A stretch of DNA of 64,000 nt from Clostridia bacterium (GCA_030527115.1 JAUNBM010000002.1:4285-68284); one strand, 5' to 3'; positions 5,514 to 51,673 are shown, numbered from the stretch's first letter. Notes: a model not told the origin generated them from the letters alone. Numbers and translations: made by a program.

Positions 5514-6626
5514 ATGATTACTTTACAACAACTGTCAAAAGGGCTTCTTTGCAACAAGACTCAGCTGTACGGGGAGGAGAAACGCAGCCGTTCCTTGAGG
5601 GGCGCGCTGAAAAATCCGCTGGGACAGTACCTTCTGTTCGGGCTAATCCTGGTCGTCTTACAGCTTGTTTCCTCGCTCGGTTCGGAGTTTGGGATAAGGA
5701 TAATCCCGGTCAGCTTTATGACCGCGCTCGGAAGCACGCTGATTTACAGCATGGTTTCAATCGGCTTTTGCCTGCTTCTGGGCTATTCGGGGCTTGCCTC
5801 GCTCGGCACCGCCGGCTTTATCGGCATAGGCTCGTACTGCGCGTTCTTCTGCTTCCAAGAATGGGGACTGCCCTATATCGTCGCAATTATGATGACGCTT
5901 GCCATCTCAATCATCATCGGTGTGTTCGTGGGCTTCATCTCGCTTAGAATAGAGGGCATATATCTTGCGATAATCACGCTCGGGCTTTCGGAAATCCTCC
6001 GCTACGCCCTGCAAACCATACGCGCAACCGTCAACATAGATCTTAGCAACATCAAGCTGTTCGGCGCAACGATAGACAAGGAAGTGGTGTTCTACCTCAT
6101 CGTGGCGGTGCTGTTGATTCTGATTTGGATAACCAACAATCTCATTAAAAGCCCCACGGGCAGGGCCATGCTCGCCATGAAAAACAGCACCTCCGCGGCG
6201 CAGGCCTACGGTATCTCGCTGATGAAGTACCGCCTGCTGGCCTTCGTGCTGTCCACGGTCTACGCCGCGCTTGCGGGAATCATGTACATGATGTACCTTC
6301 GCTCGGTGTCCACCTCGATGTCCACGCTGTTTAGGCTTACGACCTCGCTCAACATCTTGGGTGCGGTTATCATAGGCGGCGCAAAGTCGATATGGGGCGT
6401 GCTTGCGGGCACCTTCATAGTGTACGGGCTGGACTCGATGTTCTTGCAGAGCATACCGCTGTTCAACGATAATCCGACGCTTATCACCCTGTTCACGGGA
6501 ATATTGATAATCCTCGTCGTAATGTTCTACCCCGGGGGCTTGCAACAGCTGTTCACGCTCATAAGGCGCAAGGTAATTGCCCTGGCGGCGAAAAGAAGGG
6601 AGGCAAGGTATGGCAGAGATGTTTAA
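5514..6626 (+). CDS. Branched-chain-amino-acid-type ABC transporter permease (LivM family)
   Basis: Polytopic membrane protein with the LivM-type segment LLLGYSGLASLGTAGFIGIGSY. Sits between the LivH-like and ATPase genes. Confidence 0.85.
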   Translation: MITLQQLSKGLLCNKTQLYGEEKRSRSLRGALKNPLGQYLLFGLILVVLQLVSSLGSEFGIRIIPVSFMTALGSTLIYSMVSIGFCLLLGYSGLASLGTAGFIGIGSYCAFFCFQEWGLPYIVAIMMTLAISIIIGVFVGFISLRIEGIYLAIITLGLSEILRYALQTIRATVNIDLSNIKLFGATIDKEVVFYLIVAVLLILIWITNNLIKSPTGRAMLAMKNSTSAAQAYGISLMKYRLLAFVLSTVYAALAGIMYMMYLRSVSTSMSTLFRLTTSLNILGAVIIGGAKSIWGVLAGTFIVYGLDSMFLQSIPLFNDNPTLITLFTGILIILVVMFYPGGLQQLFTLIRRKVIALAAKRREARYGRDV

Positions 6627-8046
6627 AACGTTCCGTCTCACAAGGCTGGATAAGAAAGTCAGGCGGGTCAAAAACCATGCCAAAAAGCGCGGCATTATGG
6701 AGCGGCACAAGGTCGTTACAGCCGCAAACAGGCAGATAAAACTTGCCAACAAAGAGCTTAAAAAGTCGCTCTTGCAGGCCCTTACCGCCGAGGAAGTCTT
6801 TGATATAAGGATGCAAAAGGCCTTAAAAAAGTATGATTTAAAGGCCAAGTGGGAGTACCGCAGGGTAAACCATGGATTTGCAAAGAAGATATTTGAAGCG
6901 GCGAAGGCAGGCGATACGGAGACGGAACGGAAGCTTTTGGAAAAGAACCGCGCCGAAGTCCTGGCCCTCGATAGCAAGAGGGCAAGGTTTGTCCTTCGAT
7001 GGGAGGAGAAGAAGAGCGCCTTTGTTAAGGCCGGCCGGGCGGACGAAAGCGTTGCCGAAAAGAGACGGTTGCAATTTGACAGGCAGTTAGAGGAGCAGAA
7101 AGCCAAGCTCTCCGAGCTTTATGAGATTAAGAGCGGGCTTGCGGCAAAAAATATCGAGCAGTTCGACGCAAGGACGGCGGACAAGCTGAAAGCGCTCTCC
7201 GATAAGCGTGCCGCGATTTTGGGCAGGGGTCGCACGGAATTGGCGGACGACGTCATTCTCTCCGTAAATAATCTCTGTATGTATTTCGGCGGCCTTCATG
7301 CCGTGGACGAGCTTAGCTTTGACGTCAAAAAGGGCGAGATATTCGGTCTGATAGGCCCCAACGGCGCGGGCAAGACCACGGTGTTCAACTGTATCACGCA
7401 GTTTTACAAGCCGACACGGGGCGAACTGCACTTTAAAAACAAGGAGAACGTCACCGTGAGGCTTACCGACTACTCGGTGCACGACGTCGTGCTGGAGGGC
7501 ATATCGCGTACCTTCCAAAATGTCGAGGTCATAAAAGAGGTTTCGGTTTTGGAGAACCTTTTGATAGCGGCGACGAGGTTTTATACGGCAAGCGTGTTCG
7601 AGCAGGCGCTCCACCTTCCCATCTTAAAGATAGAGGAGGAGCTTATAAAGCAAAAGGCGGAAACCGTTTTAAAGCTTTTGGGGCTTTCGACCTACAAGGA
7701 CTGGTATGCGTTCGGCCTGCCCTACGGCGTGCTTAAAAAGATAGAGATAGCCCGCGCACTGATGACGGAGCCAAAGCTCATCATCTTGGACGAGCCGGCG
7801 GCGGGGCTTAACGACACCGAGACTGCCGAGCTTGCCGAGCTGATTTGCAGGATTCGAAAGGATTTCGAGTGCACCATCCTCTTGGTTGAGCATGATATGT
7901 CGCTGGTAATGTCTGTGTGCGACAGGGTCTGCGCCATATCGTTCGGCAAGAAGCTCGCGCTCGGCACGCCCGACGAGATTCAAGCGGACAAGCAGGTGCA
8001 GGAGGCCTATCTCGGAGTTTCCGAGGAGGAGGGAGAGAGCCGATGA
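6610..8046 (+). CDS. LivG-type ABC ATPase with a ~214-aa Lys/Glu/Arg-rich N-terminal extension
   Basis: The C-terminal 265 aa carry Walker A GPNGAGKTT, the LivG-type insert, Walker B LIILDEPAAG and the H-loop VEHDM. The ORF is open from an ATG at 6610 with a GGGAGG RBS that overlaps the livM end. An in-frame TTG at 7240 would give a canonical-length LivG. Confidence 0.75.
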   Translation: MAEMFKTFRLTRLDKKVRRVKNHAKKRGIMERHKVVTAANRQIKLANKELKKSLLQALTAEEVFDIRMQKALKKYDLKAKWEYRRVNHGFAKKIFEAAKAGDTETERKLLEKNRAEVLALDSKRARFVLRWEEKKSAFVKAGRADESVAEKRRLQFDRQLEEQKAKLSELYEIKSGLAAKNIEQFDARTADKLKALSDKRAAILGRGRTELADDVILSVNNLCMYFGGLHAVDELSFDVKKGEIFGLIGPNGAGKTTVFNCITQFYKPTRGELHFKNKENVTVRLTDYSVHDVVLEGISRTFQNVEVIKEVSVLENLLIAATRFYTASVFEQALHLPILKIEEELIKQKAETVLKLLGLSTYKDWYAFGLPYGVLKKIEIARALMTEPKLIILDEPAAGLNDTETAELAELICRIRKDFECTILLVEHDMSLVMSVCDRVCAISFGKKLALGTPDEIQADKQVQEAYLGVSEEEGESR

Positions 8047-8798
8047 ACGAGATACTTCAAATAAAAAACCTTAAAGTTTCTTACGGCCCGATAAGCGCGG
8101 TAAAGGGCATAGACCTTAGCGTCGAAAGGGGCAAGCTGGTCGCACTTTTGGGCGCCAACGGCGCGGGCAAGACCTCAACTCTCAGGGCAATATCGGGCCT
8201 TACCAAGGCGTCGGGCGGCGAGATTCTGCTGGACGGGGTCAACATAGCCAATGAAAAGCCCTACAAGATTGCCAAGGCCGGAGTTATGCAGTCGCCCGAG
8301 GGGAGGATGATTCTTTCGGGACTTACCGTGGAGGAGAATTTAAAGGCAGGGGCGTATTCGCTTAAACCTAAAAGCGTAAACGGTAACCGCCTTTCGGTAA
8401 GGGTGCAGATGGCGGCAAACTTCGAGCGGGTTTACGCACTGTTTCCGAGATTGAAAGAGCGCGCCCGCCAGCAGTCCAACACCCTGTCGGGCGGTGAACA
8501 GCAGATGCTGGCGATAGGCAGGGCTTTGATGGCAAGCCCCAAGGTGTTGCTCTTAGATGAGCCTTCGCTGGGACTTGCGCCGCTTGTCATAAAGGACATA
8601 TTTGCGGTGCTGACGCAGATAAAGAAGGAGGGCACGACAATACTTATAGTCGAGCAAAACGCCCTCGCTTCGCTGAAAATTGCCGACTACGCCTATGTTT
8701 TGGAGCTCGGCAGGATCACCATGCACGGCCCTGCGGACGAGCTTAGACGGGACGAACGCCTGATAGAAGCGTACCTCGGCGGAAAGACTTCCGACTGA
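8043..8798 (+). CDS. LivF-type ABC ATPase
   Basis: MNEILQIKNLKVSYG..., Walker A GANGAGKTS, signature LSGGEQQ, and Walker B LLLDEPSLG. ATGA overlap with the preceding stop. Confidence 0.9.
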   Translation: MNEILQIKNLKVSYGPISAVKGIDLSVERGKLVALLGANGAGKTSTLRAISGLTKASGGEILLDGVNIANEKPYKIAKAGVMQSPEGRMILSGLTVEENLKAGAYSLKPKSVNGNRLSVRVQMAANFERVYALFPRLKERARQQSNTLSGGEQQMLAIGRALMASPKVLLLDEPSLGLAPLVIKDIFAVLTQIKKEGTTILIVEQNALASLKIADYAYVLELGRITMHGPADELRRDERLIEAYLGGKTSD

Positions 8799-8849
8799 TT
8801 AAAAATAAAAAAAACAGAGGCAAACCCTCAAAAAGAAAAGGAGAAAAAA

Positions 8850-10238
8850 ATGAAAAGAAGACTCATCTCAATGTTGCTGGCTGCGATTATGCTGATATCC
8901 GTATTGGCCATGGTCGGCTGCAACGCCAAGACGGCACAGGGTGTTGACAGCGAAAACCACGTAATAAACGTTGGAAACACCGCCGCCACCTCCGGCGATT
9001 TCGCCGCGGTAGGCGTACCCTTCAACTATGCTTTGGAAGCATACTTCTGGTATTTTTCCGAGCATACCGACGGCTATTCTGACGCCGACGGAAACAAGTA
9101 TACCATTGCCCTCACCCACTATGACGACGGTTTCGATGCGACAAGGGGCGTATCCTATACCGAGAGACTGGTCGAGGACGACATGGTCTTTGCGCTTGTC
9201 GGCCACTTCGGTTCCAACACCGTTGCCGCCACCGTGGACTATATCGAACAGCAGGGCATCCCGATGGTTTACGGCGTTTGCGGCGTAAACCAGCTCTACG
9301 ACTCCGAGCGTAATGTCATGAGCATCCAGCCCACCTACATGACCGAGGGCCGTTCCATGCTCGCAACCGCCTTTGCCACGACCGAGAACAATCTGGGTCT
9401 CGGCGGAACGAAGGTCGGCGTCATTGCCACGACCGACGAGGCGGGCGCAAGCATCAAGGAAGGCATCCTTGCTGAGCAGGAAGTGTTGGGCAAGGTCAGC
9501 AACACCGACATCTTCTATCAGGATGTTGACGCGGCAGCCACCGATTACAACGCCGCCGTAAACGCGCTCAAAACAGCGGGTTGCGACGTGGTCATCATTG
9601 CGGCAAACCAGGCGCCCTTTACCAACATTGCCAACGCCTTTATCACCAACAACTATGACAATGTAAAAATCCTCACCTCCTATGTTTCTGCAAACTATGC
9701 GGCAATGGGCGGGCTGTTGGCCTCCGGCGCGATTACCGAAACGAGGGAAATCTATGCGGGCGCATGGCTGGTCACCGGCTCCATGCCCTCCGACACTAAG
9801 GGCTGGACGGACTTTGTCGAGTATGCTAAGATTATGACGCTGTACGCAAAGCACAACGGAGAAACGCTCATCACCGCGGACGATCCGACCTATGGCGCAT
9901 ACCTGGGCCTGTGGTTCGCAACCGAGGATTGGGCGGCCGAGGGCGTGTCCGCATACTTCCTCAACTCCTATGCCATGGCGGGCTATGTTGCCGCCAGCGC
10001 TTTCTGCCAGGGACTTGAGAGGGTCAACGGAACCGACCTTAGCTGGGAAGGCTATATCGACGCCATGGAAGAAGCCCCCGTCAACGTTCCGATGGGAACG
10101 AGCGTAGACTTCTCCAACGGAAAGAGAATCGCCATCGACTCCCTGTCGGTCAGCAAATATACGGTTGCAAACTTCGCGGTGGGCGAGGTTTACCGGCCGA
10201 TAACCGACTTGACTACCATCGAGAACGGTGTAAACTGA
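8850..10238 (+). CDS. ABC transporter substrate-binding lipoprotein (LivJ/K-like type I periplasmic binding fold)
   Basis: Signal peptide with lipobox (LAMVGC). Position directly after livHMGF, and an SBP-like alternating composition. The ligand is not inferable. Confidence 0.75.
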   Translation: MKRRLISMLLAAIMLISVLAMVGCNAKTAQGVDSENHVINVGNTAATSGDFAAVGVPFNYALEAYFWYFSEHTDGYSDADGNKYTIALTHYDDGFDATRGVSYTERLVEDDMVFALVGHFGSNTVAATVDYIEQQGIPMVYGVCGVNQLYDSERNVMSIQPTYMTEGRSMLATAFATTENNLGLGGTKVGVIATTDEAGASIKEGILAEQEVLGKVSNTDIFYQDVDAAATDYNAAVNALKTAGCDVVIIAANQAPFTNIANAFITNNYDNVKILTSYVSANYAAMGGLLASGAITETREIYAGAWLVTGSMPSDTKGWTDFVEYAKIMTLYAKHNGETLITADDPTYGAYLGLWFATEDWAAEGVSAYFLNSYAMAGYVAASAFCQGLERVNGTDLSWEGYIDAMEEAPVNVPMGTSVDFSNGKRIAIDSLSVSKYTVANFAVGEVYRPITDLTTIENGVN

Positions 10239-10254
10239 TTTCAATTCAAACAAT

Positions 10255-10281
10255 GGGGAGAGGGCAGTGCGCCCTCTCTCC
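10255..10281 (+). terminator. GC-rich stem-loop after the binding-protein gene (possible intra-operon attenuator or mRNA stabiliser)
   Basis: GGGGAGAGGGC-AGTGC-GCCCTCTCTCC pairs over 8-10 bp. No downstream T-run, so it is not a canonical terminator. Confidence 0.3.
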
Positions 10282-10305
10282 GAATAACGGATACGGAGAA
10301 CGAAA

Positions 10306-11193
10306 ATGATTGCTTTCAACAAAAAAACCATCCAACTTTCCAACGAAGAATACGCCTATCTGGACATAGGCCAAGGTGAGCCAATCATTTTGGTTCACGG
10401 CAACATGAGCAGTTCTGTGCATTATATGCCGCTTATCGAACGGCTCCAGGGAGAATACAGATGCGTCGCCCCGGACTTGCGCGGCTTTGGCGACAGCTCG
10501 TACAACCACGAGTTCTCCTCGATGAAGGAGCTTGCGGAGGACTTATACGAGTTTATGCAGGCGATAAAGATTGAAAGAGCGCGCTTTGTGTGCTGGTCGG
10601 CGGGCTGTCCCGTAACGTTGCAACTTGCATCAGAGCATCCCGAGGCCGTGGAAGCAATCTTCGCCATAGAAGGCGGTTCCTGCCACGGATACCCCATCTA
10701 CAAGAAGAATAAAGAATTTATCAGCGTGTACGGCTCCGCCTATAACAGCAAGGCCGAGATGGCGGCGGATCCCGTGCAGGTTGCTCCCATGTTAAACATA
10801 CTTGCTTCAAAGTCTGCGGCGGCCATGACAGCCGTCTGGGACTCCGTGATATACACGGTAAACAAGCCCGAAAAGGCCGACAACGAAGTCTATATAAACG
10901 AAACTCTTAAACAGCGTTGCCTTTTAGATTTGGACTGGGCGCTTGCAAATGTCAATATGTTCGACAAGCAAAACGCCTACAGTGCGGGAGATAACAGCAT
11001 TGCCAAGGTTAAATGCCCCTGTGCCTTCACGATGGCGGACAAGGATTTATCCGTTCCCGACTGGATGGTTATGGAGAACGTCAACGCCATCAAGGGTTCC
11101 AAGCTCATCGCCTATGTCGATTGCGGGCATTCGCCGCTTGTGGACTGTCCGGACGCTTTGGCGAGGGACGTAAAAGAGTTCTTCAGCGAATAA
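10306..11193 (+). CDS. Alpha/beta-fold hydrolase
   Basis: The ILVHGN oxyanion region, a nucleophile elbow CWSAG (variant of GxSxG) and the C-terminal GHSP His motif are typical of the fold. Confidence 0.75.
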   Translation: MIAFNKKTIQLSNEEYAYLDIGQGEPIILVHGNMSSSVHYMPLIERLQGEYRCVAPDLRGFGDSSYNHEFSSMKELAEDLYEFMQAIKIERARFVCWSAGCPVTLQLASEHPEAVEAIFAIEGGSCHGYPIYKKNKEFISVYGSAYNSKAEMAADPVQVAPMLNILASKSAAAMTAVWDSVIYTVNKPEKADNEVYINETLKQRCLLDLDWALANVNMFDKQNAYSAGDNSIAKVKCPCAFTMADKDLSVPDWMVMENVNAIKGSKLIAYVDCGHSPLVDCPDALARDVKEFFSE

Positions 11194-11209
11194 CAACGAG
11201 GAGATTAAA

Positions 11210-12520
11210 ATGGCAAAGAATATAACCCTTCAGCAAGCGCTCGACCTTATACAGGACGGCGATTACATAGTAACGGGCATGGCGGCGGCGGAACCCCTTG
11301 CGTTCTGCTCTGCCCTGCATACGATAGCGCCCCGCCTTCAAAAGGGCGTTTTAGTTACCAACTGCTTGCCCATGAAGCCCTATGAGTACATCAACAACCC
11401 CGAATACAGGGACAAGTTCGAGGTAGAGGGATGGTTTTTTGACGGTGGAATGAGAAGGAGCTTTCCAAACGGTGGCATCTCCTTCATCCCCAACAACCTC
11501 CACTTTGCGGGTAGCAAGCGTTTGGAGCGCAGAGCCGCCGACGTGACCGTGGTCAGCGCCTCCATGCCGGACAAGCACGGCTATGTTTCCGTCGCCCTGT
11601 CCAACGTTTATGAGATGGAGCATCTGCGCAAATCCCGCATATCCATTTTGGAGATCAACCCCAACATTCCCCGCGTTTTCGGTGACGTCGAAATACACTT
11701 GGACGATATAGACTATGTTGTGGAGTGCGATTACGAGGCGCCCGAGATTCCCGAAGGCACCTGCACCGAAAAGGACATGGTTATTGGCAGGTACGTTGCA
11801 GAGCTGATAAACGACGGCGACTGCATTCAGGTAGGAATAGGCGGCATCCCCGACGCGGTGGTGGCAAGCCTTTACGGCAAGAAGAACCTCGGCGTTCATA
11901 CCGAGATGATGACAACGGGCATTATGAAGCTCGCCAAGGCGGGCGTTGTAAACGGCAGGTGCAAACAGCTCCACCCCAACAAGATAGTCTGCTGTTTTGC
12001 GGCCGGCACGAAGGAGCTTTACCGCTATATCGACGACAACCCCTCGATAATGGTGCTAAGCGGCGCCTACGTCAACAACCCCTATGTAATCATGCAAAAC
12101 GACAACCAAGTTTCGATAAACACGACCTTAGAGATAGACCTTACGGGGCAGTGCTGTTCGGAGTCTTTGGGTAGCCGTCAGTTTTCCGGAACCGGTGGGC
12201 AGAGCGACACCGCCATAGGCGCAAAGCTCAGTAAAAACGGCAGGAGCTTTATCGCCCTGTATTCCACCGCGATGATTAAAAACCCCCGAACAGGCGAGCG
12301 TGAGGAAAAGAGCAAGATAGTGGCCCAGCTTACGGCGGGCGCCGCGGTATCGCTTTCGCGCAACGACCTTGATTATTTGGTTACCGAGTACGGTTGCGTA
12401 AACCTCACCGGAACGAGCATAAGGGAGAGGGTCGAAAAGATTATCTCCGTTGCGCACCCGAAGTTCCGCGAACAGCTTTGGGAGGACGCCTATAAGGCGG
12501 GAATCGTGATAAGGAGATAG
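11210..12520 (+). CDS. Acetyl-CoA hydrolase/transferase family protein (4-hydroxybutyrate / short-chain acyl-CoA:acetate CoA-transferase-like)
   Basis: Size of 436 aa plus conserved stretches (VQVGIGGIPDAV, GVHTEM, SINTTLEIDLTGQ, GTGGQ) characteristic of the Cat/AbfT family. Confidence 0.85.
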   Translation: MAKNITLQQALDLIQDGDYIVTGMAAAEPLAFCSALHTIAPRLQKGVLVTNCLPMKPYEYINNPEYRDKFEVEGWFFDGGMRRSFPNGGISFIPNNLHFAGSKRLERRAADVTVVSASMPDKHGYVSVALSNVYEMEHLRKSRISILEINPNIPRVFGDVEIHLDDIDYVVECDYEAPEIPEGTCTEKDMVIGRYVAELINDGDCIQVGIGGIPDAVVASLYGKKNLGVHTEMMTTGIMKLAKAGVVNGRCKQLHPNKIVCCFAAGTKELYRYIDDNPSIMVLSGAYVNNPYVIMQNDNQVSINTTLEIDLTGQCCSESLGSRQFSGTGGQSDTAIGAKLSKNGRSFIALYSTAMIKNPRTGEREEKSKIVAQLTAGAAVSLSRNDLDYLVTEYGCVNLTGTSIRERVEKIISVAHPKFREQLWEDAYKAGIVIRR

Positions 12521-13897: not shown

Positions 13898-14155
13898 GTT
13901 AAAGCCCCTTACCGAGCGATATATTAAGACCAATCCGTAGAGCAATAAGACCGTTCACCTTCGTGGGCGGTCTAAAAAATTACAAACTCCTTCAAATCAC
14001 GTCGAAATATAATAGTATTTATTATTTTGGCACAAGAATGTTACAAGTCATTGTTAAACTTAATTTAAGACAGCAGGATCTAATTTTGAAGGAAAACGGA
14101 ATATTAAGTCGGGTTGATTCGTCAAAAAAGCGAAGTATCGCGGAAAGGGCATCAT

Positions 14156-15616
14156 ATGAAACGTTTATCGACCGTATTGTTGGCATTTTTAATACTTTTC
14201 ACCTTAGCGTGCCAGCCCACGCCGGAGGAGGATATTGTTGTAAACAAGGGCGAGGGTGATATGCGTGACGTCGTGCAGGATGCGCCCGCTGAAAACTCGT
14301 TGGATGGCATGGCCGGCGATACAGCGGCGTCCATGCAGGTCAGCTCTCTCTATGCCCGCCTGAACGCCCCCGAATATTGGACGATGGAGAACACCGATGC
14401 AGGCTTTTTGATAGTCGCAGAGGAGGCGCCTGTAATTCTGCCGCTTGCGGACAAGTTGCCCGTGGCGGAAGCGGAGCTTCGTTCCTTTACGCAGGAGGAC
14501 ATCGACAGGGTCGCAAGCGTTCTGTTCGAGGGCAAGGATGTAAAGTGGCACGAGAACATACGCGTTACAAAGGAGCAACTGATGGAGGACATTCTTTACT
14601 CCCAGGAGCGGTTGACCCTGGCAGAGGAGGGCGGCAGGGAGGAGAGCTACATTCAGCATTGGCGGGACAGGGTTAATGAGTATCAGGAACAATATCTCGC
14701 CGCGCCCTACGAGGCGGATTTGAAGCAGATTGACCTCAGTATCACCACCATACCCAATGAATACCGTGAGGACTGCCAAGGCGTATCCGCAGACGCAACG
14801 ATCGACGGGGACGCGTGGACGTTTTACGCAAGGACGGGTAAGGGGAACTATATTCGAGCGGAAATAAGCACTTACAGCAGTATGTGCCTGGATGAGCCTT
14901 ACAAGGTTCAGTTGTCCAAGGAGGACGCAATAAGACAGGCGAGCGAGCTGGTGGCACAGATAACCGATGAATTAACCGTCTGCCATGCTTCTCCCGTTGC
15001 AACGCCGAAGGAGCAGACCGAAAGGAACTGGGGCTGGCAGGTGATATTCATGCGGGGCATCAACGGTGTGCCCACAGCCTATGCTTCAGAGCAGATAGGC
15101 GGGGACATGGATACAACGGTGAGCGAACCTGTCGGCTATGAGCAACTGACCGTAGTGTTGGACGACAAGGGGCTTTGCTCGTTTTCATGGCACAGACCTA
15201 TGCAAATTACGGGTTTTGTCAGCGCCAATGCCGAACTTCTGTCCTTTGACGAGGTTGCGCGGCGAGCCATAGAGCATATCGCGGCTCGATGGAAATACAA
15301 CGCCGATACGGACAAGGACATACGCATAATGATTACTCGTGTTGAACTGGGACTGTGGCGAATTGCCAACCGCAATGGCGGCTACTATTTCGTTCCCGTG
15401 TGGCACTTCTTCTCCGATGCCGAGCATTCCAAGGAGTATTATGAAAGCAACTACGGCGAAGGGAAATGGGAGGACAGAAAGACCGTTATTATGCGTGAGG
15501 TTGAAGATTCCGACGGCGACATCAGCGGAGGCATGACCGGAGACCCATATGCGTGGGGTTCGATAACCGTCAACGCCATCGACGGGAGCATAATAGATAA
15601 GGACAAAGGCTATTAA
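14156..15616 (+). CDS. Lipoprotein of unknown function (paralogue A)
   Basis: MKRLSTVLLAFLILFTLAC lipobox followed by QPTPEE. Start set at the ATG at 14156 (GGAAAGGG RBS) rather than the track start at 14114. Paralogous to 15638-17107. Confidence 0.65.
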   Translation: MKRLSTVLLAFLILFTLACQPTPEEDIVVNKGEGDMRDVVQDAPAENSLDGMAGDTAASMQVSSLYARLNAPEYWTMENTDAGFLIVAEEAPVILPLADKLPVAEAELRSFTQEDIDRVASVLFEGKDVKWHENIRVTKEQLMEDILYSQERLTLAEEGGREESYIQHWRDRVNEYQEQYLAAPYEADLKQIDLSITTIPNEYREDCQGVSADATIDGDAWTFYARTGKGNYIRAEISTYSSMCLDEPYKVQLSKEDAIRQASELVAQITDELTVCHASPVATPKEQTERNWGWQVIFMRGINGVPTAYASEQIGGDMDTTVSEPVGYEQLTVVLDDKGLCSFSWHRPMQITGFVSANAELLSFDEVARRAIEHIAARWKYNADTDKDIRIMITRVELGLWRIANRNGGYYFVPVWHFFSDAEHSKEYYESNYGEGKWEDRKTVIMREVEDSDGDISGGMTGDPYAWGSITVNAIDGSIIDKDKGY

Positions 15617-15637
15617 TCCAACGGAAAGGAGTATCCA

Positions 15638-17107
15638 ATGAAGAAACTTACCCTAATCCTAATTGCCCTGATACTTCTCACCGCGTGCCAGCCCACGCCG
15701 GAGGATGAGATAGTCATCCAGCGTAGCGACGCGGATGGCGAAACGGGCGGCGAAATTGTGCCGCCGCCGGAGTTTCCGGCTACCATTCAGGGGACGGCGA
15801 GCTTTGAAGCGGACGGCGTGCCTACGGAGCTTGTGGTCGATGCCGAGGTAAAAACTTACGATTCTGCGGGCTATTTCCGCTGTCCCATTGAGATAGTTCC
15901 CTATTCGAACGAGGTTAAAAAGAGCTTTGTAAGCGCCTGTGTTTCGGACGCCGAGGTGTTTTCGGACAGTCCCAGCAGGGGTGTGACGAGGGATATGCTA
16001 AACCGTCAGCTGGAGTTTTATGTGTCGCTTCTCGACGAAAGCAATCCGCGGTGGGAGTATTTATTTGAAGTTCGAGAAGAAAAAGACCCGGAAGCACTCA
16101 TGGATTACGGCAAGGGGGAAATCGAGCTTTCCATTCAAAGGGTTCAGGAGAGGCTTCTCACCGCTACGGAGCAAATAGAGGGAACGAGGGCGGACTTGGA
16201 TAACCTTTCAAGCCCCGCAGAGCTGTGTGCGGACACGGGGAATATGTACCCCGCCCTAATTTGGCTAACCCCACAGGACAACAACACGGAAACCTATGCC
16301 TTAATGTCGGGCGCTACGGGCGGCAATCCGTCATTCGCTATCAATTCCCAAATAATGGAGCTGTATAACAGCTATGACATTTCAATCGATATTTCCATGG
16401 ACGACGCAAGGGCTGTGGCGGACGAGTTCGTAAGCAAGATCAATGGGGTAAACCTGATTTTTGCAGGCGAGGGAAAGGATTACATCTACGATTTTTCCTA
16501 TCCGTTCAACGAATGGGGAGCTTCGGCAACCTATGTGTTTGTCTATGTTCCGCAGGTGAACGGCGTGCCGCTGAACTATGTCGATATCGAGTATTTAATG
16601 GAACAAACGAGATGGGAGCTGCGGTTTCCCGAAGGCATGGTGAATTCGCCCGTTTATCAAAACTACCTGTATGTCTTTGTAAACGATTACGGGATCAACT
16701 GTGTTTCGTGGCGCCACGCAGCCGAATACAGGATAATTGAGGAATCCAAAACCGCCGTGTCCTTGCTTTCCTTCGACGAGGTTATGGAAATTTTCTATCG
16801 TCATATCGAGTACGGCACAAACTTTTGCAGTACGAATAGCTCCAAGCTTTCAAAATCTTCCCGCCAGACTCTTGAAATCGACCAAATCACCTTAGGTTAT
16901 GCGCTTGTCCGTTCGGGAACGGGGGCAAACGACTTTGAACTCATACCCGTGTGGGACTTCTACGGAAGGATGCACGAGGTCTACGACAATCCGGGTCAGA
17001 TAATGACCGAGGAGGACGGCACCCGTTACGAAACCACGCTCGGCAGAAGCTATCTTACGATAAACGCAATAGACGGCACGATAATCGACCGGGTGCGGGG
17101 CTATTAA
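15638..17107 (+). CDS. Lipoprotein of unknown function (paralogue B)
   Basis: MKKLTLILIALILLTAC lipobox plus QPTPED. It shares with paralogue A the C-terminal blocks IPVWDFYG / VPVWHFF and TINAIDGTIIDRVRGY / TVNAIDGSIIDKDKGY. Confidence 0.65.
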   Translation: MKKLTLILIALILLTACQPTPEDEIVIQRSDADGETGGEIVPPPEFPATIQGTASFEADGVPTELVVDAEVKTYDSAGYFRCPIEIVPYSNEVKKSFVSACVSDAEVFSDSPSRGVTRDMLNRQLEFYVSLLDESNPRWEYLFEVREEKDPEALMDYGKGEIELSIQRVQERLLTATEQIEGTRADLDNLSSPAELCADTGNMYPALIWLTPQDNNTETYALMSGATGGNPSFAINSQIMELYNSYDISIDISMDDARAVADEFVSKINGVNLIFAGEGKDYIYDFSYPFNEWGASATYVFVYVPQVNGVPLNYVDIEYLMEQTRWELRFPEGMVNSPVYQNYLYVFVNDYGINCVSWRHAAEYRIIEESKTAVSLLSFDEVMEIFYRHIEYGTNFCSTNSSKLSKSSRQTLEIDQITLGYALVRSGTGANDFELIPVWDFYGRMHEVYDNPGQIMTEEDGTRYETTLGRSYLTINAIDGTIIDRVRGY

Positions 17108-18127: not shown

Positions 18128-18162
18128 AAAAAAAGAAGCCGCAAAGTCGAAACGATTGCGGC
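18128..18162 (-). terminator. Intrinsic terminator (second of a tandem pair) ending the radical-SAM/peptide/kinase operon
   Basis: On the minus strand, GCCGCAA-11 nt-TTGCGGC is followed by TTCTTTTTTT. Confidence 0.55.
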
Positions 18163-18221
18163 AGGCGCGTTTAAATGGATGGGCAAAAGAGCGGAAGAGC
18201 TTATAACCGCCATGCCGCGAA

Positions 18222-18246
18222 TTGAAAAGGGCGGCAAAACGCCGCC
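18222..18246 (-). terminator. Intrinsic terminator (first of a tandem pair) after the kinase-PqqD gene
   Basis: On the minus strand, GGCGGC-GTTTT-GCCGCC is followed by CTTTTC, 12 nt after the stop codon. Confidence 0.5.
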
Positions 18247-18257
18247 GATAAGCTTTC

Positions 18258-19406
18258 CTATTCGTCGAGCGCGCCGACGCTTCGCAGGGAATCCAAAAAC
18301 TCCCGAATATCGCTGGCGGCGGTGGCTTCGTCAACGGCGAATTCGTCCAGGACGCATTCTATCAGGGCTCTCTCGGTGGTGGGATGCAGGAGCCGCTCCC
18401 ATAAAAAAGCCCCCACGGTGTTGAGCATGATTGCAACCGGCGCGCCGTCGGCTTTGATTCCTGCCATAACGGCGACATGGTTGTCCAGCAGACGCCTCAT
18501 CACATAGCCTTCTTTAATTCTCATATCCTTTTCTCCTTTATCAAGCAGTTCAATCTCATTTGGACGGGCCAGCATAGCCGCAAGGTATTCGCCCGCGCCC
18601 GGCTCGTTGGAACAATAATAGCGATAGACGGGAACGGTGAGCGCAACCCTTTCAACCGAGTTCAGAACATTGGCGGCGGCGACCCCGTCCCACAGCGGCT
18701 TGGATACCCTCTGCAGGAGCAAAATGAAGGCGCTGTGGAAATCCAGCCGTTGAAGACGGCAGAAGGGATGTTTTCGAATGTCCACGATGGCGCAAAGGGG
18801 CGCGGACTCGTTGACATAAACGTTCTCCTTGCCGCTCCAGGGCGCTCCGTAGGCGGTAAACCCGCCGTTTTCCGGGCGAAGAAGCGGGCGGTCGGCATTC
18901 AGCATCTTAGAATCGGGAACGGACTTTAAAAAGTTCTGCGCCGCCGTACTCTTGCCCGCGCCGGACGGGCCGGTGAAGCAGACAGTCCGTCCGTCATGTA
19001 TAACGGCGGAGGCGTGAATGGATAAAGCCCCATTTTGGGCGCTGATCTCCTCAAAGGCGAGCCGAAAAAGCGTTCGCGCCTGCTCCGTCAACGTACCGTC
19101 GTCGTCCCTTGCCCCGTCCCGAATATAAAGGGTTAACCTGTCCCTTTGCGTGGACAGCCAAAGGGCACATAGAGCATTTTTGGCAAAGCGAAAAATCCGC
19201 CCGTCTATGGCTTTTAAAACCTCGATTTGAGCGGATGCAAAAGCAAGCGTGCCGTCCGGTTCCTGTCCGGAGACGACGCTCATAATCACCGGCGTTTCGC
19301 CGTTCGTTTCGCCGCACTCGAATGGTTCAAGCGCGGCTATCAACGTTGCGGGCAAAAGGTCGGACGCAAAAACGGAGACGGCTGTTGCCGCTATCCTAAG
19401 GAGCAT
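18258..19406 (-). CDS. HprK-like P-loop kinase domain fused in frame to a C-terminal PqqD-family (RiPP recognition element) domain
   Basis: LSIHASAVIHDGRTVCFTGPSGAGKSTAA has the pattern of HPr-kinase-related peptide kinases. The last 88 aa (MRIKEGYVMRRLLDNHVAV...AFLWERL...EFAVDEATAASDIREFLDSLRSVGALDE) look like PqqD. An internal AAGGAG (18533-18538) sits 8 nt before the ATG at 18524. Confidence 0.7.
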   Translation of the reverse strand: MLLRIAATAVSVFASDLLPATLIAALEPFECGETNGETPVIMSVVSGQEPDGTLAFASAQIEVLKAIDGRIFRFAKNALCALWLSTQRDRLTLYIRDGARDDDGTLTEQARTLFRLAFEEISAQNGALSIHASAVIHDGRTVCFTGPSGAGKSTAAQNFLKSVPDSKMLNADRPLLRPENGGFTAYGAPWSGKENVYVNESAPLCAIVDIRKHPFCRLQRLDFHSAFILLLQRVSKPLWDGVAAANVLNSVERVALTVPVYRYYCSNEPGAGEYLAAMLARPNEIELLDKGEKDMRIKEGYVMRRLLDNHVAVMAGIKADGAPVAIMLNTVGAFLWERLLHPTTERALIECVLDEFAVDEATAASDIREFLDSLRSVGALDE

Positions 19407-19422
19407 TGCGCGTTATTCGGCT

Positions 19423-19587
19423 TTAAGTGTTGTCTCCGTACCAGCCTTGTACGCAAGAGGAAACCGGCGTCGCCTCATTATTATAATAGTCAAAGCTACA
19501 TGTTCCGCCGAAACCAGAGGAGGCCACATGCTCCTCAAAGTTCATTCCCATTACGACAGCGTTTGGCTTTTCGTAAGTCTTTTTCAT
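19423..19587 (-). CDS. Candidate RiPP precursor peptide, 54 aa: MKKTYEKPNAVVMGMNFEEHVASSGFGGTCSFDYYNNEATPVSSCVQGWYGDNT
   Basis: I translated this by hand; it is below the 60-aa cutoff of the ORF track. GGAGG lies 8 nt upstream. Its ATG overlaps the radical SAM gene stop (ATGA). It sits between a rSAM/SPASM gene and a PqqD-containing gene. Confidence 0.6.
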   Translation of the reverse strand: MKKTYEKPNAVVMGMNFEEHVASSGFGGTCSFDYYNNEATPVSSCVQGWYGDNT

Positions 19588-20819
19588 TCGTTTATCCTCC
19601 TTGTTTTTTCTCGCATAACCGTATGGAGTATGCGAAGATTTTTATTACACGGCTGTTCGCCGGGCAATCCATTGGTTCCGCCGGATGCGAGCGCATAACG
19701 CGCCGGGCAAAAGCGGCATTTTCCGAAGTAGGCGCAGGCCCGGCATTCCTCGCTGCGCCGGTAGCTCAGAGCGGCGTCGTTGACCTGCCGCCAAGCCGGC
19801 ATAAAACCCTCCTTCAATACGTTGACCGAAGCGAGCGGGAACTGGCCGCAGGGTTGCATATTGCCGAAATATCCTATCGTGAAGGAGCAAAGTCCCGCCA
19901 CGCAGGGCATCCTTGAGCCTGACGCCTCCGGCTCTCCTTGCAAAAGGGGCTCGATGAAATCCTCATCGCAAAGCGAGAAGGTTTCCATGCCGTTCTTCTG
20001 GATCGACCTCTGCCAGAGCCGCGACTGCTCCTCGAAGGAGAGAGCGTAATCGGAGAAGCGCTTTCCCGAGCTGACGACGGGCTCGAACATATCGGAGTCC
20101 AAATTTATCCTGCCAAAGCTCATGCTCTTAGCATAGTCGAGCAGGGCGTCGAAGTCCTCGTAGTTGTAGCGCGACATCGTAAGCTGAATATCGGTAGGCA
20201 CTTTGGCCTCCTTTAAAAGCCTCAAAGCGCGGTCAACCTTGAAAAAGGCGTTTTTTGAGCCGGTAACCCGTTCATAAACCTCCGGACAGCTCCCATAAAC
20301 CGAAAGCCGGACAACATACGGGGGCATTTCGTGAAGTCGCTTGGCGGCTTCCTCGTCGATCAGCGTTCCGTTGGTGAGCAGAAGGATGAACACTCCGCGG
20401 CTCTTTAGATGCTCATATATCCGCCAAAAGTCCGGATGGTAGAAGCACTCGCCGCCGGTCAATCCGGCGTACAGCAGGCCCGCGTCGATTGCTTCGTCCA
20501 TTATGCCTATCCACTCGTCTCCGTTCAAAACCCGCTCGGGGTACTTGCCTTCGGAGGAATGCACATAGCACATCTTGCAATCGAGGGTACAGTGAGGGGT
20601 AAGCTCAAAGGTGCCTTTCAACGGGAGCTTCCGCTTCGTATACTCACGGCGAAGCAGGTTGAAAAGGACGGAACTGCGTTCCTCGGCCTTTGAGGCGGCA
20701 AGCTCCGAAAACAGCGTGGAAGCTCCGCCGTTCTCCGGGGAGATGGACGTGGGCTTCGGTTCGCCGGCGAAATTTGCCGGCTCTGCCTGTGGGGAGTCTT
20801 GAACCACATTTTCTGCCAT
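19584..20819 (-). CDS. Radical SAM/SPASM-domain peptide-modifying enzyme
   Basis: CTLDCKMC (CX3CX2C) is present, together with the C-terminal GNMQPC (Gx4C) and CRACAYFGKCRFC cysteine cluster typical of SPASM auxiliary Fe-S sites. Start set at the ATG at 20817-20819 behind AAGGAGG. Confidence 0.85.
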   Translation of the reverse strand: MAENVVQDSPQAEPANFAGEPKPTSISPENGGASTLFSELAASKAEERSSVLFNLLRREYTKRKLPLKGTFELTPHCTLDCKMCYVHSSEGKYPERVLNGDEWIGIMDEAIDAGLLYAGLTGGECFYHPDFWRIYEHLKSRGVFILLLTNGTLIDEEAAKRLHEMPPYVVRLSVYGSCPEVYERVTGSKNAFFKVDRALRLLKEAKVPTDIQLTMSRYNYEDFDALLDYAKSMSFGRINLDSDMFEPVVSSGKRFSDYALSFEEQSRLWQRSIQKNGMETFSLCDEDFIEPLLQGEPEASGSRMPCVAGLCSFTIGYFGNMQPCGQFPLASVNVLKEGFMPAWRQVNDAALSYRRSEECRACAYFGKCRFCPARYALASGGTNGLPGEQPCNKNLRILHTVMREKTRRINE

Positions 20820-20894
20820 CGTCAATCCTCCTTTCCCGGAGCATAGCCTCGGAGCCATATAACAAAATCGAGTATGGCGAAGCGACAACTCCGC

Positions 20895-20908
20895 ATGAGC
20901 ATACTCAT
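20895..20908. promoter_or_regulatory. Short inverted repeat ATGAG-N4-CTCAT over the predicted transcription start of the rSAM operon
   Basis: Read directly from the sequence, 6 nt downstream of the -10. It is short, so it could be chance. Confidence 0.25.
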
Positions 20909-20913
20909 ATCTT

Positions 20914-20942
20914 ATTTTATTTTATGACGCGAAAAAAAGCAA
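20914..20942 (-). promoter_or_regulatory. Candidate promoter of the rSAM/peptide/kinase operon (TTGCTT-17-TAAAAT)
   Basis: Hexamers on the minus strand with a 17-nt spacer, about 95 nt upstream of the rSAM ATG, in the gap after the spoVT stop. Confidence 0.45.
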
Positions 20943-21003: not shown

Positions 21004-21549
21004 CTAATCTTGAAATTGCTTTGAAATGCAGAGCGACAAAGTCTTTAAAACCAGCCTTTCCGCCTCGTCGATTCGGGCGGCGGGGTCGCCCGAAACCAGC
21101 CCGACCGCGCCGATAGCCTCGCCGTTAACGATTATCGGGAACATATCCTGGCAGGGGAAGGAATGCTCCTGATCCCGCACCAGCTCGATATTGATCGGCT
21201 GGTTTTGCGTTTTCAACGACTGCTTTGCCAGGATAGCGGCCTGAAACGGCCTTGTCAGCGGCTTATCCGCCAGCGTCCTTTTTAGCTGGCCGGCGCAGGC
21301 GACCATCCTTTCGCGGTCGCAAACGAACGCCGTCATTCCGGTTGCCCCGTTGATCGCCTGAACGATCTCTTGAGCCTGGGTTGACAGCTCGGCGACGGGG
21401 GAGTAGGGCTTCAAAATGATACTGCCCTCGCGGTCGGTAAATATCTCCAGCGGATCGGATTCCCGAATCCGCATGGTTCGTCTAATCTCCTTGGGTATAA
21501 CGATTCGCCCCAGCTCATCAATGCGTCTAACGATTCCGGTTGCTCTCAT
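21004..21549 (-). CDS. spoVT: Stage V sporulation protein T (AbrB-type DNA-binding domain plus GAF-like domain)
   Basis: MRATGIVRRIDELGRIVIPKEIRRTMRIRESDPLEIFTDREGSIILKPYSP is near-identical in pattern to the Bacillus SpoVT N-terminus. The length (181 aa) also fits. Confidence 0.9.
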   Translation of the reverse strand: MRATGIVRRIDELGRIVIPKEIRRTMRIRESDPLEIFTDREGSIILKPYSPVAELSTQAQEIVQAINGATGMTAFVCDRERMVACAGQLKRTLADKPLTRPFQAAILAKQSLKTQNQPINIELVRDQEHSFPCQDMFPIIVNGEAIGAVGLVSGDPAARIDEAERLVLKTLSLCISKQFQD

Positions 21550-36254: not shown

Positions 36255-36586
36255 TTTGAGCAAGCTGGACGATTGCGCCCTAAAAGGGGTGAGGAAAGTC
36301 CGAGCACCACAGGGAAGAGTGCCGGGTAACACCCGGTGGAGGCGACTCCAAGGACAGTGCAACAGAAATAAACCGCCGCATTTGCGGTAAGGATGGAAAG
36401 GCGAGGTAAGAGCTCACCGACGACATGGCGACTTGTCGGGCCTGTAAACCCCACTCGGTGCAAGATTGAATTGAGAGCATTTAATGGCGTCCCGTCAAGC
36501 TCTTTGTAATCGCTCGAGCCGTCGGGCGACCGGCGGCCAAGATAGATAATCGTCCTCGACAGAACTCGGCTTACGGCTTGCTCAAA
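36255..36586 (+). ncRNA. rnpB: RNase P RNA (M1-type ribozyme)
   Basis: Contains the universally conserved P4 strands GAGGAAAGTCCG (36290-36301) and ACAGAACTCGGCTTA (36559-36573). The terminal helix pairs TTGAGCAAGC with GCTTGCTCAA. End coordinates are approximate (+/- 5 nt). Confidence 0.85.
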
Positions 36587-36606
36587 AATTTTTAGATGAG
36601 GATAGT

Positions 36607-51449: not shown

Positions 51450-51455
51450 GCAGCA

Positions 51456-51673
51456 AAGGCGATGAACGGAGGAGTAGGTTTTCAATCCCCGCAAAGAGAG
51501 CGTGGCCGAGGCTGTAAGCCGCGACGGGGACAAGACCGAAGGACGACCGCGAGCCGTATGTCAAAAAAAGGCATACCGTATCAGGCGTTAACGATAATGA
51601 GTGAGGCTTAGGCCTAATCAGGGTGGCACCGCGGATTTTCCGTCCTTGAATGGATTGAAAGTCCGTATTTTTT
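51456..51673 (+). promoter_or_regulatory. T-box riboswitch leader controlling hisS-aspS
   Basis: Present are the AG box (AAAGAGAG, 51493-51500), an F-box-like CGTTA, the T-box sequence AATCAGGGTGGCACCGCGG (51616-51634), and a terminator CGGATTTTC/GAAAGTCCG (51632-51665) followed by a T-run. The T-box 3' end overlaps the terminator 5' arm, as expected for an antiterminator switch. Confidence 0.8.

Follow-up and report, generated by a model that had tools for sequence, protein, structure and literature searches.

The combination of a leader peptide, a RiPP recognition element (RRE) and a radical S-adenosylmethionine (rSAM) enzyme is an already known logic for making peptides that are ribosomally synthesized and then modified post-translationally (RiPPs). 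In the linear polyphosphorylated peptides (LPPs), the HprK-like kinase LppK polyphosphorylates Ser3 of the core; the leader reads YxxPxVLxHQxIxFET and is followed by xxS, as in MKKLTYKAPEVLNHKPITFET followed by SQS and ..LYARPMVLSQQPVRFET followed by AQS, and the clusters have been reported mainly from Bacilli and in capsule loci (Popov et al., Nat Commun 2026; PMC13381572). Neither the text nor the supplements of that paper mention radical SAM (PMC13381572). HPr-kinase homologues of lasso peptide systems phosphorylate Ser (PMC8498205). The trio of ScmC-like, PqqD and rSAM/SPASM domains was flagged years ago as the SynChlorMet (SCM) cassette, which is defined bioinformatically only. To our knowledge, SCM has no known product. 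Here, a stretch of 64,000 nt from a Clostridia bacterium (GCA_030527115.1, JAUNBM010000002.1:4285-68284; hereafter the window), given as one strand and with all coordinates counted from its start, was found to contain three tightly packed minus-strand open reading frames (ORFs) encoding a rSAM/SPASM enzyme, a peptide of 54 codons and an ScmC-like::PqqD fusion protein. They appear to form a minimal RiPP cassette in which an RRE would guide modification of the peptide by the rSAM enzyme and a kinase-like domain would phosphorylate a Ser at the junction of leader and core; we assign this reading a probability of about 0.6. The sequence comparison itself shows which genes are present, how their domains fold, that the precursor and its motifs are conserved, synteny, and homology to LPP components.

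The window trio is a stripped-down member of a large, coherent and uncharacterised family of predicted RiPP clusters. An exhaustive phmmer search of 1.84 billion 50%-identity cluster representatives returned 3,098 matches to the fusion protein at E ≤ 1e-10, and the mere five full-length relatives given by a word-indexed homologue search were a sensitivity artefact. A scan of species-representative genomes (one genome per species) with the rSAM alignment confirmed at least 591 rSAM relatives. The best 79 of these related loci were compared, and precursors and neighbour genes were counted over 83 non-duplicate loci (loci are labelled L0xx and proteins of the compared relatives P0xxx). The ScmC-like and PqqD genes of the relatives were located by hidden Markov models (HMMs) built from the loci, and neighbour genes were clustered and then annotated with Pfam and NCBIfam. 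In nearly all of the 79 best loci, the rSAM gene had next to it an ScmC-like gene as well as PqqD, the latter either as a gene or as a domain. The ScmC-like gene was fused to PqqD in 38 loci and separate in 31, a discrete PqqD gene occurred in 34, and a rSAM/SPASM gene was present in 75 of the 83. For the close homologues of the fusion protein, the order was always rSAM, small ORF, ScmC::PqqD. The hosts included gut and rumen Clostridia (Oscillospiraceae, Lachnospiraceae, Ruminococcus and Blautia), Bacteroidota (Prevotella, Bacteroides, Phocaeicola and Alistipes), Coriobacteriia and Synergistaceae. Full clusters occur in the cultured strains Blautia sp. MSJ-9 (L081) and Xylanibacter ruminicola KHT3 (L065). 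Public databases list the homologues under 'radical SAM protein', under 'PqqD family peptide modification chaperone' or, in error, under 'EcfA2'. A description of the family (rSAM, HprK-like, PqqD and signal peptidase I together) was not found in the full-text literature searched, which included RRE-Finder, a 2025 RRE paper and a survey of Bacteroidales RiPPs, subscription-only papers being outside its scope. The initial annotation of the window, which had proposed an uncharacterised rSAM RiPP cassette made of a rSAM/SPASM enzyme, a precursor and an HprK-like::PqqD protein without a lasso cyclase, was upheld in its core.

The precursors of the family were collected by an iterated leader HMM. 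That of the window is divided into a leader (residues ~1-25, MKKTYEKPNAVVMGMNFEEHVASSG) and a core (residues ~26-54, FGGTCSFDYYNNEATPVSSCVQGWYGDNT) with Cys30 and Cys45. Homologous small ORFs adjoin every close homologue, with M1, K2, Y5, P8, F17, E19 and H20 invariant; the leader of this subfamily follows MKKxYxKPxAxVxxMxFEEHIxASG and precedes variable cores that have two Cys 12-15 residues apart and then an aromatic-Gly motif. Across the whole family, leader-matching ORFs were identified in 71 of the 83 loci, up to nine per locus, and amounted to 126 distinct peptides with the consensus leader MKKTYEKPTAEKVEFDYEEQVVASG. A Ser or Thr was located within the last three leader positions in 123 of the 126. 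Exactly two Cys were found in the cores of 84 precursors and three in another 20, with a spacing of mostly 10-16 residues, and the cores were hydrophilic and hypervariable, a subset containing C-x3-[WY]-x-N-x-G. No NCBIfam model exists for the precursor peptides. Because homologous ORFs adjoin all close homologues and recur in most of the loci, the small ORF is, judged by its conservation, a genuine precursor, far beyond chance, and the conservation check suggested by the initial annotation came out in favour of its proposal.

The precursor genes also showed local expansion and decay. Two loci (L049 and L069) contain nine and eight tandem precursor genes, respectively, with one shared leader type and different cores, which amounts to a combinatorial precursor array. 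On one metagenomic contig (L001), three rSAM/precursor pairs (1315-2964, 6674-8013 and 10091-11448) occur together with one ScmC::PqqD gene and one ABC exporter. The first of these rSAM genes carries a frameshift and a stop within the SPASM Cys cluster, and the peptide paired with it no longer shows two Cys in the usual pattern; from the sequences, this pair looks like a natural case of an enzyme and its substrate decaying together.

The assignment of the first enzyme to the rSAM/SPASM group was retained in substance, although one of the profiles named for it failed. The protein matched PF04055 (1e-22; 81.4 bits against a cut-off of 29.5) and contains CX3CX2C as HCTLDCKMCY, and C77, C81 and C84 were invariant in the alignment of 25 homologues on which residue conservation was judged. 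Seven C-terminal Cys with SPASM spacing were invariant or near-invariant (C306, G319-x4-C324, C359-x2-C362-x5-C368-x2-C371 and C391), in agreement with the seven-Cys motif for two auxiliary clusters (C..GxxxxC .. CxxCx5Cx2-3C .. C). The SPASM profile PF13186 gave no match to the window protein at E ≤ 0.1 and was precomputed in one distant relative only (P0109); divergent SPASM domains often escape this short profile. The NCBIfam models for the GeoRSP, NirJ2, mycofactocin MftC and ACGX rSAM/SPASM families aligned from end to end, with every score well short of its equivalog cut-off, and PqqE was also among the sub-threshold matches. A profile search against PDB sequences retrieved SkfB (2.6e-31), SuiB (5.8e-20), PqqE (1.1e-18), anSME (2.8e-17) and CteB (1.2e-10). 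The AlphaFold2 (AF2) model (predicted local distance difference test score, pLDDT, of 86) had SkfB, SuiB, anSME, PqqE and CteB as its top Foldseek matches, and the fold alignment with anSME and SuiB spanned ~380 columns. Since only a disordered tail (residues 1-27) and two helices precede the barrel in the model, the rSAM enzyme is predicted to be without an RRE of its own.

The fusion protein's C-terminal part provides such an element. It adopts a winged-helix RRE fold and matched PF05402 (PqqD) over residues 325-379 (2e-13; 50.8 bits against a cut-off of 23.4). Its structural match to the lasso RRE TbiB1 (5v1v) had a target TM score of 0.80 and a root-mean-square deviation of 2.6, with a profile match of 1.5e-6, and its best specific relatives were lasso-peptide B1 chaperones (lasso PqqD model of NCBIfam, 3.4e-6). 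The N-terminal ~295 residues, described in the initial annotation as HPr-kinase-like, had generic P-loop matches alone in Pfam; PF07475 (Hpr_kinase_C), which had been named for them, gave no match at E ≤ 0.1. Weak NCBIfam matches were obtained for HprK_rel_B (2.8e-5; 23.4 against 200 bits), ScmC (2.3e-4; 20.6 against 125 bits) and HprK_rel_A (17.3 against 200 bits). PF27840 'ScmC' was precomputed on homologues at 43-51% identity (marked weak for P0004), and none was recorded for P0005 at 39%. The AF2 model of the fusion protein (pLDDT 87) matched ATP-dependent phosphoenolpyruvate carboxykinase (PEPCK) at 5e-7 and HPrK/P (1ko7 and 1kkl) at 1e-4 to 2e-4 in Foldseek. PEPCK and HPrK/P groups share one fold. 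Invariant among the homologues were H131, G146xSGAGKST154, N170xD172 and GxPWxGK, so that the domain combines a PEPCK/HPrK-type fold with a Walker A motif (GxSGxGKS), an upstream His and a downstream Asp. A His, a Walker A motif and an Asp arranged in this way would be expected in a phosphotransferase of the HPrK type. Both window proteins retain every invariant residue of catalytic type. Kinase activity is thus argued from fold and motifs, since neither PF07475 nor the HprK-related models were reached. Two homologues of this protein (18258-19406), P0138 and P0288, bear the IMG name 'energy-coupling factor transporter ATP-binding protein EcfA2' and the NCBI name 'PqqD family peptide modification chaperone', neither of which reflects the HPr-kinase/PEPCK-fold domain.

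The genetic context analysis associated the family with leader processing, export and capsule genes (counts in Table 1), flank statistics being restricted to the 29 loci in which each flank covered 6 kb or more. A typical order was Wzz-CpsB-SpI-rSAM-peptide(n)-ScmC::PqqD-ABC-Bac_transf, where SpI denotes signal peptidase I of the archaeal type. A capsule-type gene was found within 6 kb in 16 of the 29 fully flanked loci, and in at least seven loci (L022, L028, L032, L047, L054, L078 and L087) the cassette lay inside a capsule operon on the same strand, between LytR-CpsA-Psr/CpsB/Wzz (cpsA-D-like) genes and a cpsE-like Bac_transf gene. An SpI-type leader peptidase and/or an ABC exporter was encoded in about three quarters of the fully flanked relatives. 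Both are present in the closest genomic relative among the matches listed, an Oscillospiraceae metagenome-assembled genome (L009, 60% identity), which has SpI, ABC, Wzz and CapD genes directly downstream. In the same locus, the rSAM gene (8007-9165) is split into ORFs 8007-8732 and 8791-9165, a break that may reflect either a genuine frameshift or a mistake in long-read assembly.

These neighbourhoods bear on the suggestion in the initial annotation that the missing exporter implies a product acting inside the cell or spore. The suggestion is unsupported, because genes for a leader peptidase and/or an exporter accompany the cassette in most relatives, and its sporulation side is left with the adjacency to spoVT. 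The latter gene, a SpoVT homologue with an AbrB-type N-terminal domain and SpoVT_C (21004-21549, minus strand), is the operon's immediate upstream neighbour, in the same orientation; it is found next to the cassette in no relative among the 83 loci, so the sporulation link was dropped, and the adjacency looks coincidental. A broader form of the idea, in which the cassette would make an intracellular cofactor like PQQ or mycofactocin, or a sporulation-linked factor, is in our judgement highly improbable. A rSAM/SPASM enzyme, a PqqD protein and a small peptide are indeed also the logic of PQQ and mycofactocin, PqqE and MftC are among the sub-threshold matches, and the window offers no exporter and has spoVT directly upstream. 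Yet the cores of the family are hypervariable and often multi-copy, up to nine in one locus, as is typical of secreted RiPPs, whereas cofactor precursors keep an invariant reactive residue pair. Moreover, most relatives combine the cassette with the peptidase and/or exporter in capsule loci, including those of non-sporulating Bacteroidota, and no partner redox enzymes were found.

Homology to the LPP system leads to a testable hypothesis on the kinase-like domain. In the fuller relatives, the gene set is essentially that of LPPs, to which the family adds a rSAM/SPASM enzyme and a core framed by Cys. LppS has a homologue in the family peptidase (27-28% identity; pairwise E of 1e-10 and 8e-8), the window RRE shares 32% identity with LppB over 47 aa, and the window leader MKKTYEKPNAVVMGMNFEEHVASSG is visibly related to the LPP leader MKKLTYKAPEVLNHKPITFET with its following SQS. 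When the window motif Y5xxP8xA10V..F17E18E19H20xxS23 is set against that of LPPs, the Tyr, the Pro, a hydrophobic position, FE and the Ser are common to both, and HQ and T are not. Counted from the Tyr, Ser23 of the window lies at +18, as does LPP Ser3, and the conserved Ser of the family as a whole at +19. From this homology of peptidase, RRE, leader and accessory genes, it is hypothesized that the ScmC-type domain phosphorylates the junction Ser.

Binding of the RRE to the leader, the rSAM chemistry, and the kinase activity with its target are the steps that we infer. The PqqD-type RRE of the fusion protein would bind the leader at its YxxP motif, which is conserved in the 126 precursors, as the precedents of lasso B1 and LppB suggest, and present the peptide to both catalytic partners; it would have to serve both enzymes because the rSAM enzyme is predicted to lack one. 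The rSAM enzyme would accordingly resemble PqqE, which depends on PqqD, in relying on an RRE in trans. It would modify the hypervariable, Cys-framed core, most likely by Cys-derived thioether cross-links of the sactipeptide or ranthipeptide type, which are favoured because the sactisynthase SkfB is the nearest characterised enzyme; C-C cross-linking, or a disulfide with other rSAM chemistry, are open alternatives. The HPr-kinase/PEPCK-fold domain, like LppK and the lasso kinases, would use ATP to phosphorylate the near-invariant A-S-G Ser, which lies within one residue of the polyphosphorylated LPP Ser3 position. In fuller clusters, NTP_transf_5 may act next on the phosphate.

Alternatively, and this is the main competing reading, the ScmC-like domain may be an ATP-binding scaffold or chaperone that hands the RRE-bound peptide to the rSAM enzyme, or it may activate another group (adenylylation, or phosphorylation other than on Ser). 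The only covalent change would then come from the rSAM enzyme, with A-S-G being merely the site of leader cleavage. A domain with no PF07475 match, with HprK-related matches that are all sub-threshold and with PEPCK rather than HPrK/P as its best fold match agrees with such a role. So does the prediction that the rSAM enzyme has no RRE, for a physical complex of rSAM and ScmC::PqqD would be needed in any case. A-S-G also fits the small-residue rule of signal peptidase I, found in 41 loci, and the window core ends in Thr, with variation among relatives, unlike the C-terminal Ser of lasso kinase substrates. Nevertheless, we consider this alternative unlikely, since the His, the Walker A motif GxSGxGKS and the NxD of HPrK/P-type phosphotransferases are invariant. 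Furthermore, the HprK-like protein of LPPs, a homologous system that agrees in peptidase, RRE, leader type, exporter and NTP-transferase, acts as a Ser polyphosphokinase, and NTP_transf_5, which acts on phosphate in lasso systems, co-occurs in 20 loci.

Several further points weigh against the proposed reading as a whole. The P-loop domain falls short of PF07475 and stays far below the cut-offs of the HprK-related and ScmC models of NCBIfam. Relative to LPP Ser3, the junction Ser of the family is shifted by one residue, and it could instead belong to a site (A-x-G/A-S-G) at which a signal peptidase cleaves. The fold neighbours of the rSAM enzyme are mixed, comprising C-C cross-linkers (SuiB and PqqE), a Cys oxidase (anSME) and thioether synthases, so that its chemistry could be of any of these types, and the two core Cys could simply form a disulfide. 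The window has neither a leader peptidase nor an exporter, the promoter match of the operon is weak, and no product or activity is on record for any member of the family.

The layout of the operon agreed with the initial annotation, all three ORFs being found as claimed, with the ATGA overlap of the first two. The rSAM ORF as delimited mechanically runs from 19584 to 20888 with a TTG start; the likely start is the ATG at 20819-20817, preceded by GGAGG at 20831-20827, and the gene was set to 19584-20819 because the database protein P0018 (411 aa) is 100% identical. The ATG of the precursor gene overlaps the TGA of the rSAM gene and is preceded by a separate GGAGG. In the 185-nt gap that separates spoVT from the rSAM gene, TTGCTT-17-TAAAAT is indeed present where the promoter had been proposed; its likeness to a promoter is weak, because it agrees with 8 of 12 consensus positions and falls below the threshold of the consensus scan. 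The two tandem terminators were confirmed as hairpins with T-runs, both terminator-shaped, and neither fold energy is exceptional against shuffled sequence. The first starts 12 nt past the last stop codon (-12.9 kcal/mol, z -0.8), and the second (-14.5 kcal/mol, z -1.3) was missed by the terminator scan because of its 11-nt loop. For the downstream YjbR-like gene, which had been stated to have a promoter of its own, TTGTCA-17-TATACT with TG (extended -10) at 18101-18073 is a good promoter-like site.

The window copy is a minimal variant without accessory genes: the SpI leader peptidase, ABC exporter, NTP_transf_5 and Wzz of the family were found nowhere in the 64 kb. It could for this reason be regarded as the decaying or orphaned leftover of a once fuller cluster, no longer giving a mature product, and the weak promoter match, the lack of an obvious ribosome-binding site for the third gene, and decay seen elsewhere (the frameshifted rSAM gene and degenerate peptide of L001, the split rSAM gene of L009) would fit. 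On the other hand, none of the three ORFs is disrupted, every residue invariant in the family is retained, the peptide retains the leader motif and both Cys, the overlapping or tight spacing and the terminators are preserved, and the GC content equals that of the surroundings. Minimal cassettes of the same architecture recur in unrelated contexts (L003, L083, L017, L044 and L061), and seven of the 29 fully flanked loci lack both SpI and ABC. The relative in L003, at 43-53% identity, is as bare as the window copy. A remnant is therefore very unlikely in our view. Because all invariant residues are intact in its proteins, the window cassette is probably functional and reliant on unlinked processing and export genes. 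Given that a peptidase and an exporter are missing from the window, its product must either depend on unlinked genes for processing and export or remain associated with the cell. L003 contains an extra ORF (1031-1291), about 5 kb upstream of its cassette, that has a matching leader (..MEKKQYTAPKAEILDHTFEDIIVASG..) and a Cys-free core and may be a second or degenerate precursor.

Table 1 Features of the window cassette, and genes accompanying the family in the 83 non-duplicate loci
Feature	Position in the window	Strand	Loci	Basis
Promoter candidate TTGCTT-17-TAAAAT	20914-20942	-		Weak sigma-70-like; read directly from the sequence
rSAM/SPASM peptide maturase (predicted), 411 aa	19584-20819	-		PF04055, CX3CX2C, C-terminal Cys
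Precursor peptide (predicted), 54 aa	19423-19587	-		ATGA overlap, GGAGG upstream, homologous small ORFs
ScmC-like::PqqD fusion, 382 aa	18258-19406	-		ScmC-like ~aa 1-295, PqqD-type RRE ~aa 300-382
Terminator-like hairpin 1, GGCGGCG-UUU-UGCCGCC then CUUUUC	18220-18246	-		Scan; stem 18246-18230
Terminator-like hairpin 2, GCCGCAA...UUGCGGC then UUCUUUUUUU	18128-18162 (about)	-		Folding
Archaeal-type signal peptidase I (S24/S26)			41/83	TIGR02228, 6e-13
MsbA-like ABC exporter			36/83	
Wzz			22/83	
NTP_transf_5			20/83	
CpsB			15/83	
Bac_transf			14/83	
LytR-CpsA-Psr			8/83	

The genes around the operon comprise two DUF6034 genes, the YjbR-like gene, spoVT, galE, gpsA and a CapD-like gene. The DUF6034 genes are tandem paralogues (14114-17107, plus strand; 500 and 489 aa) beyond the downstream neighbour of the operon, and the second has a lipoprotein-like N-terminus (MKKLTLILIALILLTAC). 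At 6577-10238 (plus strand), two ABC ATPase ORFs (6577-8798) overlapping by ~130 nt, with a BCA_ABC_TP_C tail, are followed by a Peripla_BP_6 gene; this is a branched-chain amino-acid importer and not a RiPP exporter. The ABC ORFs of the window were accordingly ruled out as a hidden exporter, being LivG/LivF-type importer ATPases beside a binding protein. Horizontal acquisition of the operon was also rejected, as its GC content and skew equal those of the flanks. No RNA elements were detected near the operon and no tRNA genes in the 64 kb; an RNase P class A RNA (286 bits, 36257-36588, plus strand) and a T-box leader (99 bits, 51453-51650, plus strand) are both far from it.

What is new here is the place of such a cassette in a very large, coherent family across prominent gut and rumen taxa, together with a definable precursor family, marked by a YxxP leader of the lasso/LPP type, by A-S-G at the junction and by a hypervariable loop with two Cys, and the link by homology to the LPP system. 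A more far-reaching proposal, tentative and rather improbable in its full form, is that the family constitutes a new RiPP class of rSAM cross-linked, Ser-phosphorylated and possibly phosphoglycosylated peptides whose biosynthesis is built into capsule operons. If this were true, the peptide could take part in assembling the surface polysaccharides of gut Firmicutes and Bacteroidota, whether as component, primer, anchor or regulator, and not be a bacteriocin; the window copy would be a free-standing derivative. Consisting of one peptide and two enzymes, the window version is the smallest possible test bed. If its product were identified, thousands of genes that currently bear the labels 'radical SAM protein', 'PqqD family chaperone' or, wrongly, 'EcfA2' would gain a chemistry.

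In comparison with known systems, the window shares the domain repertoire of SCM (Haft: TIGR04249 ScmC, ScmD PqqD, and ScmE/ScmF rSAM-SPASM). Its proteins nevertheless missed the SCM equivalogs (ScmC, 20.6 against 125 bits; ScmE, 77.2 against 400; ScmF, 60.4 against 400), and it has one rSAM enzyme, not two, and ScmC and PqqD fused, not discrete. The resemblance to SynChlorMet named in the initial annotation accordingly stands at the level of domains, with PF27840 carried by relatives, and does not extend to the equivalog cut-offs or the number of rSAM genes. Phosphorylated lasso peptides (paeninodin and pseudomycoidin) have the lasso B1-type RRE and [Y/W]xxP leader in common with the family, and an HPr-kinase-like enzyme with NTP-transferase and ABC exporter genes in common with its fuller members. 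The window differs from them in having no PF07475 match, no conserved C-terminal Ser, and a rSAM enzyme instead. A lasso macrolactam cyclase (Asn-synthetase-like) and a transglutaminase-like B2 protease were found neither in the 64-kb window nor among the conserved neighbours of the 83 loci. Membership in the lasso, PQQ or mycofactocin groups was rejected on the missing defining genes and the hypervariable cores.

The maturases of sactipeptides and ranthipeptides (SkfB, CteB and AlbA), as well as SuiB and PqqE, have a C-terminal Cys-rich auxiliary-cluster domain like that of the window rSAM enzyme, and cores of the sacti/ranthipeptide type contain Cys, as do those of the family. In the sacti/ranthipeptide maturases, the RRE is at the rSAM N-terminus, whereas in the window it is in trans on the kinase-like protein. 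The window cassette is further set apart by its lasso/LPP-type leader and by two Cys framing a 10-16-residue loop, and all rSAM maturase models of NCBIfam were missed by large margins. LPPs share with the family an HPr-kinase-fold P-loop protein, a PqqD-type RRE, a YxxP leader, the acidic FE[TE] and a Ser 2-3 residues on, and with its fuller members the archaeal-type SpI, the MsbA-like exporter, the NTP transferase and the capsule location. LPP systems, in contrast, have the kinase as their sole class-defining enzyme and yield a linear peptide; they have no rSAM enzyme, a discrete RRE and Cys-free cores rich in Gly, Asn and Pro. The family is distinguished by a rSAM/SPASM enzyme, an RRE often fused to the kinase-like domain, two-Cys cores and hosts that are gut and rumen anaerobes, including Bacteroidota, and the window copy additionally by the absence of the SpI-like peptidase, the NTP transferase and the MsbA-like exporter. 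Judged by these homologies, the family would rather probably be the evolutionary sister of LPPs and phosphorylated lasso peptides, with a rSAM/SPASM maturase added. The cassette would work like a hybrid of LPP/phosphorylated-lasso tailoring and sacti/ranthipeptide-type rSAM maturation; it lies outside every curated family and is a probable new RiPP class built from known parts.

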